Assembly: GCA_048938855.1 (NCBI GenBank)
Contig: JBHLLT010000003.1
Coordinates: forward strand, 32,001 to 96,000
DNA: 64,000 bases
DNA from: Promethearchaeota archaeon
GTDB taxonomy: Archaea > Asgardarchaeota > Lokiarchaeia > Sigyniarchaeales > SOKP01
Reading direction: 5' to 3'
The position numbers and the translations under genes are program-made. Position 1 is the first letter of the stretch, and each line of letters begins with the position of its first letter. Below are positions 2,660 to 64,000 of the stretch, piece by piece. The notes under the pieces were generated by a model. The model made no database searches. It saw only the letters and a program-made list of their open reading frames with translations, and was not told where the DNA came from.

Positions 2660-4048
2660 TTAAATTTTTCGATAGAGATATCTATCATATACAACAAATT
2701 TCACTTTTTTTGTTGAATCATCCCTAATGAATCTGATAAATTGTTTAGGTATTGGTAAAGTGCTACAAATGGTAAAGGTTAAACGCTCTACTTCTTTAGG
2801 TATCAAGGGAAGGGTCATAGATCCATCATCGATTTCAATATCAGCAAAAAGTACAGTTCCTTTAAGGTATATTTTTATTTTGTATAAATCATGGGAAGAT
2901 TTATATTCACCAGAGATTTCTTCAATGATTTGCTCCATCTTTAATTCTTCAATATAACTAATCGGATCTAGGCCAAGTAATATAGATAGTGCAGCTTTAG
3001 AAATCGAAGAAACAGTACCCGTACATGTATTTTGTCCTACTGAGACACCTAATTTCATTCCAGGAATAAGACTTAAATCAGCACAACTTGTTCCAAGTCC
3101 ACCACTATGATGCATACAAGGGTACTTAAAATAAGAAGCATCCAAAATCCATCCTAAACAATATTTTGGATCTTTTCCATACCCATATGGGCTAGAAATT
3201 CTTGGTGTCCATAATTCGTCTATTAATTCAGCAGAAAGTAACTGTATTCCTTTATACATTCCTTTTTGAATTAGACATTGAATATAATTCATCATCTCTT
3301 CCATCGAAACGTATAATCCACCTGGAGCATTGAGATAATCATAAAGTGGAACTGAATACTTTTCAGGTACCATTATATTATCTTTATTTTTAGGCATGTA
3401 TCCAGTGATCTTATTACTATCTTTCTCAAAATCTTTTTTTGAAAAAACTGCACGATTCATATCAAGTGGATCGAGAAGTTCACGTTGCATAAATTCTGGA
3501 TAAGACAATCCAGATAATTCCTGTATAATAAATCCTAAACACGTGAACATATCATTATTATAAAAAAATTTTTCTCCTGGATTAAAGATAATATAATCTT
3601 CGGGTTCACCAAGATGCGCAATAAAATCTTCTTTTGTTGTAGCGGGATATACTTTTTTATAATCCCCGAAGGTGTAAAATAAAAAAGCTAATCCACCATC
3701 TGCTGCAGGAACACCACTTGAATGTGAAAGTATATGCTTAATTAGAATATCGGGATGTGTAGTAAAAGGTGCGAAATCTAAATATTTTGATACAGAGTCT
3801 TCAAGAGATAGTTTCCCTCTTTCAACAAGCTTCATAATACCGAATGCGGTCATAGATTTAGTGATACTACCGATCCCAATGAGTGTTTGTGGGGTCATTG
3901 GAGTAAATTCTTCAAGATCACGGGCTCCAAATCCCTTTGAATATACAATTTGGTTCTCCTGAAAAATAGAAATTGCTAATCCAGGAATTTTATATTTACG
4001 CATATAATTTCGAACAATCTTTTCTAATTGGGTGAACTGTTTTTCCAT
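2660..4048 (-). CDS. Class C beta-lactamase-like serine hydrolase / D-peptidase (Pab87-like, with C-terminal domain)
   Basis: SxxK (GSITK), YNN, HSGG and LSHSSG motifs; extra ~100-aa beta-rich C-terminal domain. Confidence 0.85.
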   Translation of the reverse strand: MEKQFTQLEKIVRNYMRKYKIPGLAISIFQENQIVYSKGFGARDLEEFTPMTPQTLIGIGSITKSMTAFGIMKLVERGKLSLEDSVSKYLDFAPFTTHPDILIKHILSHSSGVPAADGGLAFLFYTFGDYKKVYPATTKEDFIAHLGEPEDYIIFNPGEKFFYNNDMFTCLGFIIQELSGLSYPEFMQRELLDPLDMNRAVFSKKDFEKDSNKITGYMPKNKDNIMVPEKYSVPLYDYLNAPGGLYVSMEEMMNYIQCLIQKGMYKGIQLLSAELIDELWTPRISSPYGYGKDPKYCLGWILDASYFKYPCMHHSGGLGTSCADLSLIPGMKLGVSVGQNTCTGTVSSISKAALSILLGLDPISYIEELKMEQIIEEISGEYKSSHDLYKIKIYLKGTVLFADIEIDDGSMTLPLIPKEVERLTFTICSTLPIPKQFIRFIRDDSTKKVKFVVYDRYLYRKI

Positions 4049-58566: not shown

Positions 58567-59841
58567 ATGGAATTTCGAAAAGGCTATAGCGCAAAAGTTG
58601 ATGATCGTTTCAGCATTCACATTGCTAATGATAGTGAAGAAGAATTAAAAGCTATAGTTAATTTAAGTATGAAGGTTCATCAAGAGGAATTATTAATAAC
58701 ATACATTCCACGCATATTTTTAGAACATCCGAGAAAAAGTGAGACTTTTTGGTTGTATATTAAGGATGATAAAGAAAACAAAATAATTTCTTTAATATGT
58801 CTATCTCCTTTAGAATGGCAAATTGAAGACAATTCATTACCAGTATGTGAAATGGAGTTTGTTGGAACTCTTCAAGAATATAGGGAAAAAGGCTTTATTA
58901 AAATTTTAAACGATCTTTATGAAAAATTAATGAACCAAAATGGCTATATTCTTTCAGTTATTAGAGGGATTCCATATTTTTATCGTAATTTAGGATATGA
59001 ATATGTTTCTTCTCTCGATGAGAGAATAAAAATTCCAGCATCTAAAATCCCTAATAAAAAATATGAAAATTTAGTTATAAGACTAGCCAATTCTAATGAT
59101 GTCCTTTCTTTTATTAAATCTAAATATGATCAATTCCAGGAAAACTTTTATATCTTTAATAGATTTGATCCAGAATGTTTTAAATTTAAATATATAAATG
59201 AAAAATTTGACTCAGAAGTTCGTTCCACATATATTTTTGATGAAGCTGGTGTCGCTAAGAATTACTTTTCTGTTGGAATGAGCTATGATAATCAAAATTA
59301 TGAGATAATTTGTTCTTTCTTAACAGAAAAAGAAATGACAAGCTTGCTTCAATTCATTAAATCTATAGGAAATTATAACGGAAATGATATCATTACTCTT
59401 AGTATTAGCGAACATTCACCACTTTTTAAATATCTCAAATCTTTAGGAGGAGAGATGGTTTCAAGTTATGGATGGCAAGTAAAAATTCCAAATTTAATAA
59501 ATTTTTTTACTCTAATAAGAAACATACTTGAAAAGAGAATAAAAGATTCTGAATTTAAGGGATTAACTAAAACTATTAGGATTAGTAATTATAATGACAC
59601 TATAGTATTGGAATTTATTAAAGGAAAAATCGAGAATATTGAGATTGAAAAAGAGTATCCAGACCCTAAAATTACTGATCTTATGATTCCAGGAACTCTT
59701 TTATTTAAACTAATATTGGGAGATAGAGCCATTGATGAAATAAATTATATCTTTAAAGATACAATAGTAAATACTTCATCAAAATTAATCATTGAAACGA
59801 TGTTTCCAAAAAAAATAAGTCTTTTCAGTTCATATATCTAA
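58567..59841 (+). CDS. Eis-like tandem GNAT acetyltransferase with SCP2-like C-terminus
   Basis: 'VGT..EYR.KG', 'GIP.FYR.LGYE'. Confidence 0.75.
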   Translation: MEFRKGYSAKVDDRFSIHIANDSEEELKAIVNLSMKVHQEELLITYIPRIFLEHPRKSETFWLYIKDDKENKIISLICLSPLEWQIEDNSLPVCEMEFVGTLQEYREKGFIKILNDLYEKLMNQNGYILSVIRGIPYFYRNLGYEYVSSLDERIKIPASKIPNKKYENLVIRLANSNDVLSFIKSKYDQFQENFYIFNRFDPECFKFKYINEKFDSEVRSTYIFDEAGVAKNYFSVGMSYDNQNYEIICSFLTEKEMTSLLQFIKSIGNYNGNDIITLSISEHSPLFKYLKSLGGEMVSSYGWQVKIPNLINFFTLIRNILEKRIKDSEFKGLTKTIRISNYNDTIVLEFIKGKIENIEIEKEYPDPKITDLMIPGTLLFKLILGDRAIDEINYIFKDTIVNTSSKLIIETMFPKKISLFSSYI

Positions 59842-59950
59842 AAACTGTATAGTTTAATTTTTTACAAAAGAAAAATAATTGATTATTTTGAAATTATTTA
59901 TTAATTGTTTTATATAAATAAAAAAATTAGATTAAAAAAAATACAAATAT

Positions 59951-61090
59951 CTAGGTTTTTTCTAATTCCATTTTCGCTATCGCTTTCCCAGATCGGAATG
60001 GTATATCTTCTACTGACATTCCTGCCTCATAATTAAACTTCTTTTTGAATGCTTCGTTTAATGATTGAAAATATAACGAAAGTGGTAAATTCTGAGGACA
60101 ATTATTATCACAGTTTCCACATTCTACACATCTATCAGCATCGTGAGCTACTCTTGTTAATTGATATGTAGCTGTATCAATAGTTTTATCTTTTCTCTTT
60201 TTCATAAGAATACAATCTACACAATAGCAGACTGGGCAACCTCTTATACAGGTATTACACATAGTACATTTAAGAAGCTCTGCCATTTTTTCTTCTTGTG
60301 AGAGTTTATCCCATTCTTCCAGATCTTTTGCTCGTTTTTCTTTTGCTTTCTCAATGATTTCGTTATACTTATCTAAATGAGCTTTTTTCTCCTTATCTGG
60401 AAGTGCTTTTGTTTTAATTCCTGATTTTTTTAGAATTTCACTTCCTTTATCAGAATACACCTTTAAAATGATCTCATCTGAATCAATTGGAATAGCTAAG
60501 TCGCTTACAGTTAAATCAGCGACAACCGGAATTTTTCGATAGCATCTTAAACAATTCTCAGCAACACTAAAATTAAGTTCTTTTGTTTTTCCATCTTCCA
60601 TCTTCACAATTAGACCGTTATCCCCCACTTTTTCTTTGACAATCTTTGTAGCGTCAATATCCTTGATGGATCTCATTTCTCTTGCAGCTTTAGGAAGCAT
60701 ACCTCTATCCTCAATACCAATTACAAAAAGATTATCGAGATTTACTTGTTTTATTTTAGCAAGTTCAATTAATGCTCTTGTATCACACGGTCGTGCAATA
60801 AGACCTACTTTCTCGTGCATTGCTCCTGCTACAGATTTATGTAAATATTTTGAAGCAGAATCTGTTCTTGCATACCCAAATGCAATTAATGGGGTTAATG
60901 GAAAATCCTTTAGATCTTCCTCTTTTTCCACTAGTTGGGGTTGAACAGTAAATCTGTCTATACTTCCTGATTTCTTATCAACCCTTAATTGAGCACCTAT
61001 TATTTTATCCACTGCTTTTTCTTTTAATAAAGTCGCTAAGATTTTAGTAAAATCTTCAATCTTTATTAAATATTCTGCCATTGCTTCCAT
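59951..61090 (-). CDS. FdhB/FrhB-like subunit with 2x[4Fe-4S] ferredoxin domain
   Basis: 'RPCD.RA..EL.K..Q', 'C..C', KCTMCNTCIRGCPVCYC..C and RCVECGNCDNNCP. Confidence 0.85.
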   Translation of the reverse strand: MEAMAEYLIKIEDFTKILATLLKEKAVDKIIGAQLRVDKKSGSIDRFTVQPQLVEKEEDLKDFPLTPLIAFGYARTDSASKYLHKSVAGAMHEKVGLIARPCDTRALIELAKIKQVNLDNLFVIGIEDRGMLPKAAREMRSIKDIDATKIVKEKVGDNGLIVKMEDGKTKELNFSVAENCLRCYRKIPVVADLTVSDLAIPIDSDEIILKVYSDKGSEILKKSGIKTKALPDKEKKAHLDKYNEIIEKAKEKRAKDLEEWDKLSQEEKMAELLKCTMCNTCIRGCPVCYCVDCILMKKRKDKTIDTATYQLTRVAHDADRCVECGNCDNNCPQNLPLSLYFQSLNEAFKKKFNYEAGMSVEDIPFRSGKAIAKMELEKT

Positions 61091-61216
61091 GTAATCCCAA
61101 CTCTAACTTTAGATTAACCAAATAATTTTTTTTTTATTTTTACAAATTTTATGAAAAAAATTTTCAAATTTTTATTATATTCTAACAAACTTTTTTAATG
61201 TGTTATATGGTGCACC

Positions 61217-61268
61217 CATTTCTTCAACTGAGTTCTCATTTTTTTTAACTCAGTCTCATTAGGAAACA
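61217..61268 (-). promoter_or_regulatory. Eukaryote-like SECIS element (3' UTR of mvhD)
   Basis: mRNA sense: UGUUUC-CUA-AUGA-GACUGAGUU-AAAAAAAAUGAG-AACUCAGUU-GA-A-GAAAUG, i.e. AUGA/GA core, 9-bp upper helix and A-rich apical loop, 11 nt after the stop codon of a gene with two in-frame UGA. Confidence 0.88.
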
Positions 61269-61279
61269 CATTGATTTAT

Positions 61280-61738
61280 TTAAGCCTCAGCTTTCGCTTG
61301 AGCTTTTCCTTTCTTAGGTGTGCCTTTTGTACGTAAGGGACTTGGTCCTAATTTACGTATTGTCTTATCGATTTCAATTGCTTCATTTTGAAATTTCTGA
61401 CCTTCGGCTGCAGTACAGTAGATCATTTTTAATCTATCCGGGCTTATCCCAATAACTTTTAGTATTTCTTTAAGATATTCAACTTGCCTATAAGCATGGT
61501 AATTACCAGTCTCATAATCGCATTCGCCAGGGTATCAAGCGTTAATTACAACTCCGTCAGCACCTCTTCCAAATGCTCGCAATACAAGGTCAGGACCTAC
61601 ACGACCAGAGCAAGGTACTAAAACATTTCTAATACTGTCTGGATATTGAGCCCGAATAGTACCTGCCATATCTGCAGAGCCGTACCCTCATTTCCAGCAA
61701 GCAAATACAATAATTTTAATATCATTATCTTCTGCCAT
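61280..61738 (-). CDS. mvhD: MvhD/VhuD [2Fe-2S] protein, selenoprotein with 2 Sec (U17, U68); absent from the ORF track
   Basis: MAEDNDIKIIVFACWKUGYGSADMAG...VPCSGRV...GADGVVINAUYPGECDYETGN...; UGA at 61688-61690 and 61535-61537; ends TAA; 152 aa. Confidence 0.93.
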
Positions 61739-61750
61739 TTTCTTCCCTCT

Positions 61751-63727
61751 CTATTCCTCTATTGGTAATAATTCATCTACTAAAGCCATATATTGTTGAT
61801 CTCTAAAGTAAGTTAATTCTATTGCTTTTGATGGACATAATGATGCACAAGTGCCACATCCCCGACAATTTATTAAATCGACGACAATGTTTCCAGTTTC
61901 ATTTATCGAAATAGCTGTATAAGGACACGCTTCAATACATTTATAACATTTCGCACAACGTTCATCTGATGGTGTAGCTCGAATTAATTCCATAGTATAT
62001 TCTCCTTTTCCCATCGGAATGCCTGCAACTGATGCTGCTCCTCTTGCTTGACTCACAGCTTTGTCTATCTCTTTTTGCCCTTGAGCAGAACCACAAATGT
62101 AGATTCCTGGAACTTTAGTGCTAATAGGATCAAGTCTGGCATGGTATTCTTTTAAGAAACCATCAGGACTTTTTTCCATATTTAGTACTTTAGCAATTTC
62201 TATAGTACCTTGAGATGGTAGAGACGCTGGGGATAATACTACCATATGAAATTCCATAGTAACTACACTGTCAGTTCCAACCGGTTCAAATTGTACTATA
62301 AGATTTTTTGTAAGTGGATCTTCTTCAATTTTTCCTACTAAACCCTTAACAAATATAATTCCGGCATTTCGAGATCTTCTATAATATTCTTCATAATCTT
62401 TCCCTGCGCATCTCATATCTATATAACAACAAACTATCTGCGAATCTGGGTACTCTGATTTTATTAATTTTGAGTTTTTGAGAGACAGATTGCAACAAAT
62501 TACACTACAATGTGCATTTTTGTTGACATCTCTAGATCCTACGCAATTGATGAATAGAACTTTTGTAGGACGTTTTCCATCTGATGGACGCTTTAAATGT
62601 CCATATGTGGGGCCATTTGGAGCAAGTATCCTCTCTAGCTGTATTTGATTAATAACGTTATCGTAAATACCGTAACCATAATCATCTCCTTGGTAAAGAT
62701 CCCAACCAGTCGCAACTATTATTGTACCAACCTTGAGCTCCACAATTTCATCCTGCTGACTAAAATCTATAGCTTGTTGTTCACAAGCATCAACGCAAGC
62801 GAAACATTCAATGCAAGCTTCTCTATTAAGCTGTGATATTGCTGGAACTGCCTGTGCAAAAGCAATATCGATAACCTTTCTTGCGGAGAGATTTTCATCA
62901 AAGTAATTGCTAATATAGACGGGGCATACATCTGTACATGTCCCACAACCTGTACATTTGTCTTCAAGAACAAATCGAGCTTTCCTTCTAACTTTGACAT
63001 CAAAATTGCCAATGTAACCATCGATTTCAGAAACTTCACTGAAAGATAAGATTTCTATATTTGGATGACGATTAGCTTCAAGCATTTTTGGTCCCAAGAT
63101 TCATATGCTGCAATCATCTGTAGGGAACGTTCTATCGAGTTGTGACATTCGTCCTCCAATAGTGGTATTCTTTTCAACTAAATAGACTTTATATCCAGCA
63201 TCTCCTAAATCAATAGCTGCTGATAATCCGGCAATCCCTCCACCTACTACGAGAGCAGATGGTTCTACTGGCACAGTTTTAGTTGGTACATCTTCCAATA
63301 ATTTAGCTCGAGCAATGCCTGCTTTAATTAATTCAATTGCTTTTAAGGTAGCTTTTTCCCGCACTTCCGGAGCCTGATGAACGAATGAACAATGCTCTCG
63401 AATGTTTACAAATTCTAAATATCTTGGAGGCAAACCCATCTCAGTTAATATGGCATGAAAAACTGGTTGATGAGTTTTTGGAGTACATGCCGCAACTAAA
63501 ACCCTATTAAAGTTGACTTCTTCATGTTTTTCCTTGATTTCAGTAGATCCACCTTCAGTACATAGAGACAAATATGGGTAAGCCCAAACATTATCTAATT
63601 TATTTATTTCCTCGACAATCTTTGGAATATCTAAGATTCCTGCAATGTTGATACCTCAGTGACACACAAACACACCTATTCTAGGTTTTTCTTCGTTTTC
63701 ATTTTCGTTGGTCTGCTTTTCAGACAC
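61751..63727 (-). CDS. hdrA: Heterodisulfide reductase subunit A, selenoprotein with 2 Sec (U24, U209); split in the ORF track
   Basis: GTG start after GGTGG; 'RIGVFVCHUGINIAG' (UGA 63656-63658) and 'TFPTDDCSIUILGPKM' (UGA 63101-63103), all in one frame; 658 aa. Confidence 0.93.
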
Positions 63728-63895
63728 TTTAACCACCTTAAGTTAAACCTAACCTCCTAATTTTTATATGGTATCTTCTCTCTTAGTTTCTTAGAGTAAA
63801 TACAAGAATTTAATTTATGATATTGTAAATAGTTTATATTATTAAAATTCAATTGTTATAACAAGTAACTTCTCTTTTGGTATTTCTTAGTGAGT

Positions 63896-64000
63896 TTATA
63901 ATTTTAATATCATTTCTTTATCACCATCGTTTTCTCTAAAACCATATTTCTCGTATAAAGGTCTGCCAGAGGGAGTTGCATGTAGCATCACTGAATGAAT
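63896..64000 (-). CDS. C-terminal part of a GNAT acetyltransferase (truncated by the window edge)
   Basis: IHSVMLHATPSGRPLYEKYGFRE...; 'LHA...G..LY.K.GF' GNAT motif. Confidence 0.75.
   Translation of the reverse strand: MHSVMLHATPSGRPLYEKYGFRENDGDKEMILKL

Follow-up and report, generated by a model that had tools for sequence, protein, structure and literature searches.

Here we describe a pair of genes with in-frame UGA codons, together with their putative recoding element, in a 64,000-nucleotide stretch of the genome of Promethearchaeota archaeon (GenBank assembly GCA_048938855.1, contig JBHLLT010000003.1, positions 32,001 to 96,000 of the forward strand). This stretch is hereafter called the window, and its own numbering is used throughout. 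On the minus strand of the window, the gene hdrA (61751..63727), which encodes a heterodisulfide-reductase subunit A-like flavoprotein when TGA is translated as selenocysteine (Sec, U), is followed by mvhD (61280..61738), and a single selenocysteine insertion sequence of the lokiarchaeal type (lokiSECIS) lies past mvhD. The two genes carry four in-frame UGA codons, and we hold with good confidence that this one lokiSECIS serves all four of them in co-transcribed hdrA and mvhD.

The hdrA gene starts with a GTG at 63727, preceded by AAGGUGG, and ends with a TAG at 61753-61751. Its product contains FAD and 4Fe-4S domains (Pfam) and, among the HdrA chains of solved structure, was matched over its full length to 9sfi_A (8e-206) and 5odc_A. 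The first UGA (63656..63658, minus strand) is residue 24 counted from the GTG start and is aligned with a Cys of 9sfi_A. Its distance to the downstream AUGA of the SECIS is 2399 nt, in agreement with the about 2.4 kb given in a preliminary description of the locus. The second UGA (63101..63103, minus strand; residue 209 by the same numbering, 1844 nt upstream of the AUGA) belongs to the motif DDCSIU and occupies the canonical Sec position of HdrA, where it is aligned with the non-standard residue X at about position 197 of 9sfi_A (DDCAMXIL). For comparison, 18 orthologous hdrA-mvhD loci from genomes of the same genus were used, and all counts of 19 given below include the window. Each of the two hdrA codons is TGA in 19 of 19 loci, and in some orthologs a further, third TGA of hdrA takes the place of the TGT or TGC of the others. 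The stop codon of hdrA is TAA or TAG in all 19.

The mvhD gene (also vhuD; FlpD family) runs from an ATG at 61738 to a TAA at 61282-61280 and encodes a protein of 152 amino acids (Pfam PF02662, 2e-42), which was matched to the solved MvhD chains 9sw2_D and 5odc_D. Its two UGAs, at residue 17 (61688..61690, minus strand) and residue 68 (61535..61537, minus strand), lie 431 and 278 nt upstream of the SECIS AUGA, respectively; both are aligned with Cys of 9sw2_D, and each is TGA in 19 of 19 loci. As the preliminary description stated, only 12 nt separate mvhD from hdrA (61739..61750, minus strand). This spacer holds a Shine-Dalgarno-like AGAGG; the sequence AGAGGT is kept in all orthologs, where the spacer measures 10-19 nt. 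In one ortholog (L014/L063, G024:C13), the mvhD frame meets neither TAA nor TAG ahead of the SECIS; its first stop past residue 152 is a TGA, and therefore mvhD there probably ends in UGA near the SECIS.

The four in-frame UGAs of hdrA and mvhD are almost certainly read as selenocysteine. A genome-wide reassignment of TGA is excluded, as four long open reading frames (ORFs) elsewhere in the window terminate with TGA, at exactly the positions that the preliminary description had named. It was also correct that the three genes of this region end otherwise, hdrA with TAG, mvhD with TAA and the frhB-like gene behind them with TAG. The whole genome (3.95 Mb, 93 contigs) was then searched for the Sec machinery. 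A tRNA-Sec with the anticodon TCA was found at 61.1 bits (cut-off 47), with the SepSecS gene (463.9 bits) adjoining it. EFSec is encoded 5 kb from the tRNA-Sec, and its best solved relative is the archaeal SelB 4AC9 (3e-86), followed by human eEFSec. Two tandem selD genes above cut-off were detected at G000:C34:253707-255755, each with one in-frame TGA. The preliminary description had considered that tRNA-Sec, EFSec or selD might be missing from the genome; all of them are present. EFSec, tRNA-Sec and SepSecS are clustered within 7 kb (G000:C49:35767-42808).

Past the mvhD stop, a covariance model termed R2, which was built from an ungapped alignment of 18 other lokiSECIS cores with the window element excluded, matched a lokiSECIS core at 61221..61263 (minus strand; 42.7 bits, E 1.1e-7). 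Within this core, an AUGA (61259-61256) stands directly 5' of a 9-bp helix II, in which GACUGAGUU (61255-61247) is paired with AACUCAGUU (61234-61226) by nine standard pairs, and a GA (61225-61224) stands directly 3' of the same helix. The AUGA is invariant in the 19 orthologs, as is the GA. The apical loop, AAAAAAAAUGAG (61246-61235), has 12 nt with eight A at its start and AG at its end, and among the orthologous elements it measures 11 nt in most cases and 12 or 13 in others, by changes in the A run. In the 18 elements of the R2 alignment, each of the nine helix II pairs varies on both of its sides while 93.8% of the cells remain paired, compared with 52% in shuffles, and none of 500 shuffles reached the observed value. 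MAFFT alignments of mixed-length elements (A2 and A3) were kept out of these pair counts, as loops and outer helices were misaligned in them. A strict descriptor, with a perfect 9-bp stem and an A-rich loop, was matched by only 3 out of 500 shuffled versions of the region, which also marks the hairpin as more than a chance structure.

The core is part of a larger predicted fold, a 76-nt three-way junction (61197..61272, minus strand) with a minimum free energy (MFE) of -18.1 kcal/mol and a z-score of -2.96. Besides helix II, it comprises a closing helix of 8 bp (61272-61265 with 61204-61197) and a third hairpin of 4 bp (61219-61216 with 61210-61207). The closing helix begins 7 nt past the mvhD TAA and the AUGA 20 nt past it, so the spacing of 11 nt that had been reported for the hairpin needs correction. 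The same holds for the region start at 61217, which cuts through the element because the SECIS spans 61272-61197. When the fold was applied to the 19 orthologs, 98.7% of the cells were paired, compared with 24-52% when the partners were slid, and the helices barely vary among these loci. A three-armed layout was also obtained in 14 of 19 constrained MFE folds of lokiSECIS elements from this genome and its relatives, in which the helix sequences are different. Tentatively, these folds suggest that the working unit might be the 76-nt three-way, k-junction-like fold and not a plain hairpin, a unit that would be intercistronic here and recode, past a cistron boundary, UGAs as far as 2.4 kb upstream; we consider this possible, at somewhat less than even chances. 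The element of the window represents a subclass with the closing helix AAUGUGUU/AACACAUU and a GUGCA loop in the third hairpin, while most other lokiSECIS subclasses (loci L045-L054) have closing helices of the CCGA/UCGG type and a CUAACC motif after the core.

Next, we asked whether this element is the only one available to hdrA. With the filters off, R2 gave a single significant match in the 64-kb window, at 61263-61221. The runner-up, at 17.9 bits (2685-2725, minus strand; E 0.13), falls within the 3' end of an ORF of 462 aa that lacks in-frame TGA and is probably due to chance. Across the 18 complete orthologous hdrA-mvhD loci, R2 gave exactly one match each, always past mvhD, with no other match above about 15 bits, the hdrA interior included. 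When 59500-64000 was scanned against Rfam with E values up to 10, no SECIS family came up, only chance-level matches (RAGATH-33, Corona_FSE and others). A relaxed AUGA..GA descriptor gave 7 candidate rows at four sites on the sense strand, which is at the chance level (3.5 +/- 2.8 rows in shuffles), and a descriptor of the euryarchaeal GAA_A type gave no candidate on the sense strand of 61000-64000. Two AUGA-started hairpins within mvhD, at 61691-61646 and 61515-61479, were rejected, having 7-8 bp stems with a mismatch, a shuffle-level number and no synonymous constraint; the AUGA of the former contains the first mvhD UGA. The covariance scan that had been proposed for further SECIS elements found none in the window or in the 18 orthologous loci.

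Features that might escape such scans were also assessed. Synonymous codon identity among the 19 orthologs, in windows of 12 codons, is flat (0.47-0.65) over both genes and near each UGA. Higher values in the first 20 hdrA codons and in the last mvhD codons are an artefact, because variable protein stretches share residues only among close relatives and few pairs are counted there. For the 5' untranslated region (UTR) of hdrA, RNAalifold gave no consensus structure, and the 5' UTR of the window itself folds worse than its shuffles (z +1.7). At 63802-63772, a core-less scan returned a hairpin whose A-rich loop has 11 nt and ends in AG; we rejected it as a SECIS since its pairing is not conserved. 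No second SECIS within or upstream of hdrA, which the preliminary description had regarded as an argument against sharing, was found by models, descriptors, the synonymous profile or the 5' UTR folds.

These results bear on the strongest alternative, that the hdrA UGAs use a separate, unrecognised recoding element in hdrA or its 5' UTR and that the hairpin past mvhD serves mvhD alone. Such an element has a precedent in the one 5'-UTR SECIS of Methanocaldococcus jannaschii (cited in PMC4989117), and the 63802-63772 hairpin, with its loop length and composition, would be a candidate. In addition, covariance models can miss divergent elements, as our own first model shows (see below). Against this, the 5'-UTR hairpin is not kept among the orthologs: it reaches only -2.5 kcal/mol in the closest relative, loops vary from 3 to 13 nt, and what persists is a palindrome, TTTCTTAG..CTAAGAAA. 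The 5' UTR shows no shared fold, synonymous sites along hdrA and at every UGA carry no sign of an additional constraint, eSECIS-like candidates do not exceed shuffle expectation and euryarchaeal-type ones are lacking, and R2 stays at or below 15 bits throughout hdrA in 18 orthologs. Taken together, we judge a separate hdrA element to be improbable.

Several observations weigh against a single lokiSECIS serving both genes. The first covariance model, R1, made from nine elements of other subclasses (from this genome and relatives), did not detect the SECIS of the window even at E up to 10 with the filters off; it is because of this miss that model scans can be said to overlook divergent elements. 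R2 took the place of this overly narrow model. In the genome, the PSTK candidate is full-length and scores below the family cut-off (132.8 vs 290.5 bits). Furthermore, a lokiarchaeal SECIS was inactive in Methanococcus maripaludis (PMC11881835), which indicates that the two systems are incompatible and leaves the function of the lokiSECIS unproven. The lokiSECIS subclasses are divergent enough for a single-subclass model such as R1 to overlook another.

To see how far UGA codons and lokiSECIS elements go together, other hdrA loci of the same genome were inspected. R2 gave 11 matches at E<0.01 in the 3.95-Mb genome. Among its hdrA loci, about a dozen in number, five contain UGA, each of them then followed by an R2 match, while the Cys-only hdrA-mvhD loci examined had no R2 match. 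At G000:C77:4713-2628 (minus strand), an hdrA with two UGAs and without mvhD behind it has its own lokiSECIS (2669-2628), about 10 nt past the stop, which speaks for each transcript needing a SECIS in cis. The pair at G000:C20:88498-90947 (plus strand; L045) has four in-frame UGAs in hdrA and two in the mvhD behind it, and this mvhD most likely stops at the UGA contained in the core AUGA of the SECIS. An mvhD ending at that position fits the published idea of a minimum recoding distance. Six further lokiSECIS matches were located elsewhere, three of them in tandem on C70:123336-124988 (minus strand) and the others at C34:438242-438283, C49:285284-285325 and C66:27694-27736.

Upstream of hdrA, about 90-130 nt before its start codon, lies an A/T-rich block of 44 nt with the TATA-like sequence TTTTAATAATATA (63817..63860, minus strand). 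This block is near-invariant across the 19 orthologous loci with divergent flanks, and it is the only strongly conserved non-coding block; we infer that it would be the promoter of hdrA. Because the spacer between the genes is 10-19 nt and the sole strongly conserved block precedes hdrA, co-transcription of hdrA and mvhD appears very likely. The conserved palindrome TTTCTTAG..CTAAGAAA (63772-63810, minus strand), whose hairpin loop is 3-13 nt among the orthologs, is located near the predicted transcription start and might serve as an operator or as a hairpin that stabilises the 5' end. A conserved UUAGGAGGUUAGG is present at 63760-63748, beside the Shine-Dalgarno motif at -8 of hdrA.

A second alternative is that hdrA and mvhD each have their own transcript, or that the SECIS acts in trans, so that no recoding across cistrons takes place on one mRNA. 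In all 19 loci, the spacer carries a ribosome-binding motif only and is too small for a terminator plus a promoter; the one strongly conserved upstream block precedes hdrA and not mvhD; and the C77 hdrA without mvhD carries its own SECIS, pointing to a requirement in cis. We therefore consider separate transcripts or action in trans very improbable. Still less probable is the last alternative, that the UGAs do not encode selenocysteine and instead reflect broken genes or are read as a different residue: although hdrA and mvhD both look split under translation table 11, this has next to no chance of being correct with the four TGAs kept in 19 genomes at Cys or Sec positions of solved structures in otherwise intact frames, TGA serving as the stop of other window genes, and a complete candidate set of Sec machinery in the genome.

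Behind the SECIS, after a spacer of about 100 nt, lies a gene for an frhB/fdhB-like iron-sulfur protein of 379 amino acids (59951..61090, minus strand; stop TAG, no in-frame UGA) with the Pfam domain PF04432 (FrhB_FdhB_C) and 4Fe-4S ferredoxin domains. It is syntenic in all 18 orthologs and is possibly the third gene of the hdrA-mvhD operon. A run of seven T after the SECIS is found in the window alone and not in the 18 orthologs. The spacer between the SECIS and the frhB-like gene also holds a weakly conserved A/T block, which could be a promoter.

Based on these results, we propose the following working model for the sharing of one lokiSECIS by hdrA and mvhD. The two genes would be transcribed together from the promoter-like block before hdrA, possibly with the frhB-like gene. 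In the resulting mRNA, the single lokiSECIS 7-85 nt past the mvhD stop would fold into a three-way junction whose 9-bp helix bears an A-rich loop at its apex and a kink-turn-type AUGA/GA core at its base. This element would mark the mRNA, and EFSec with Sec-tRNA(Sec) would then decode the four UGAs, 278-2399 nt upstream, in two cistrons. Under this model UGA is barred as the stop of hdrA, since it would be recoded too, which leaves UAA or UAG. Co-transcription, action in cis over 278-2399 nt and a factor that links the SECIS to EFSec are the inferred parts of this model.

The arrangement bears on the evolution of selenocysteine decoding between archaea and eukaryotes. A SECIS of the eukaryotic type would act here at kilobase range, on several UGAs spread over two reading frames of one polycistronic mRNA in a prokaryote, without a known SBP2. 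The value of the locus is that of a clean, well-conserved test case: its four UGAs lie at four different distances from the SECIS, 19 orthologs are available for comparison, and both the promoter block and the three-armed fold are defined.

The three-armed fold invites comparison with the k-junction. The k-junction, attributed to Wang et al. (2014, NAR), is said to have a tandem G.A core of the kink-turn type at a three-way junction. As in the k-junction, the third helix of the predicted fold of the window would be inserted on the strand carrying the 3' GA, a likeness in layout only.

The closest known systems are the HdrA-VhuD pairs of Lokiarchaeota described by Mariotti et al. 2016 (Mol Biol Evol, PMC4989117). 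All of the HdrA-VhuD tandems reported there have one lokiSECIS only, past VhuD; a shared polycistronic mRNA is the most likely template of both genes, with as many as six UGAs served across about 2 kb, and HdrA never ends in UGA. The window agrees with these pairs in the gene order, with hdrA immediately before vhuD/mvhD on the same strand and only a very short spacer between them, in the several Sec of HdrA, including the canonical one near position 200, and the two Sec of VhuD about 50 codons apart, and in a single element with AUGA, 9-bp stem, A-rich loop and GA that is found only past the second gene, with an hdrA stop other than UGA. The lokiSECIS was defined in the same study by AUGA, a 9-bp stem, an 11-nt loop (the first five nucleotides mostly A, the last G usually after A) and GA (or AA). 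The window element differs from it by one extra A, its apical loop being 12 nt with a run of eight A and not 11 nt. The first UGA is 2.4 kb away in the window, compared with about 2 kb in the published pairs. A further difference is the closing helix and third hairpin, which are not described in the main text of Mariotti et al. 2016 (PMC4989117) or of Huang et al. 2024 (PMC11227280).

In the latter study (Huang, Xiao and Zhang 2024, ISME J), the shared-SECIS reading was repeated across more than 400 Asgard genomes. The type I eSECIS-like elements and hdrA-frhD clusters of Asgard archaea reported there have the same AUGA_GA core and an apical loop opening with adenines, and we found no substantive difference from the window. 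As an interpretation, the sharing of one SECIS across cistrons put forward in the preliminary description is supported by the sequence; as a new point it does not stand, as the arrangement was already published in 2016 and 2024, and the locus is another instance of it, perhaps one already contained in the genome set of the 2024 study.

Compared with the eukaryotic SECIS (Rfam RF00031 SECIS_1), as used in multi-UGA mRNAs such as that of SelP, the element of the window has no Rfam match even at E 10; the Loki elements of PMC4989117 were not recognised by the Rfam SECIS model either. The upper helix of the window element is shorter, its mRNA would be polycistronic, the element itself may sit between cistrons, and no SBP2 is known in Asgard archaea, where it was not found in either survey (PMC4989117, PMC11227280). 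Compared with Methanococcales and Methanopyrus, the window shares with the VhuD SECIS of these archaea (GAA_A type with an AUGA motif) the use of one 3' element for two vhuD UGAs, as well as the hdrA-vhuD synteny. The euryarchaeal SECIS, in contrast to that of the window, has a GAA_A bulge, GC-rich stems and an upper stem of three G-C pairs, and the HdrA of Methanococcales and Methanopyrus is reported to contain only one Sec, which occupies the canonical site near 200 (PMC4989117), whereas the hdrA of the window has two UGAs, the second of them at this position.

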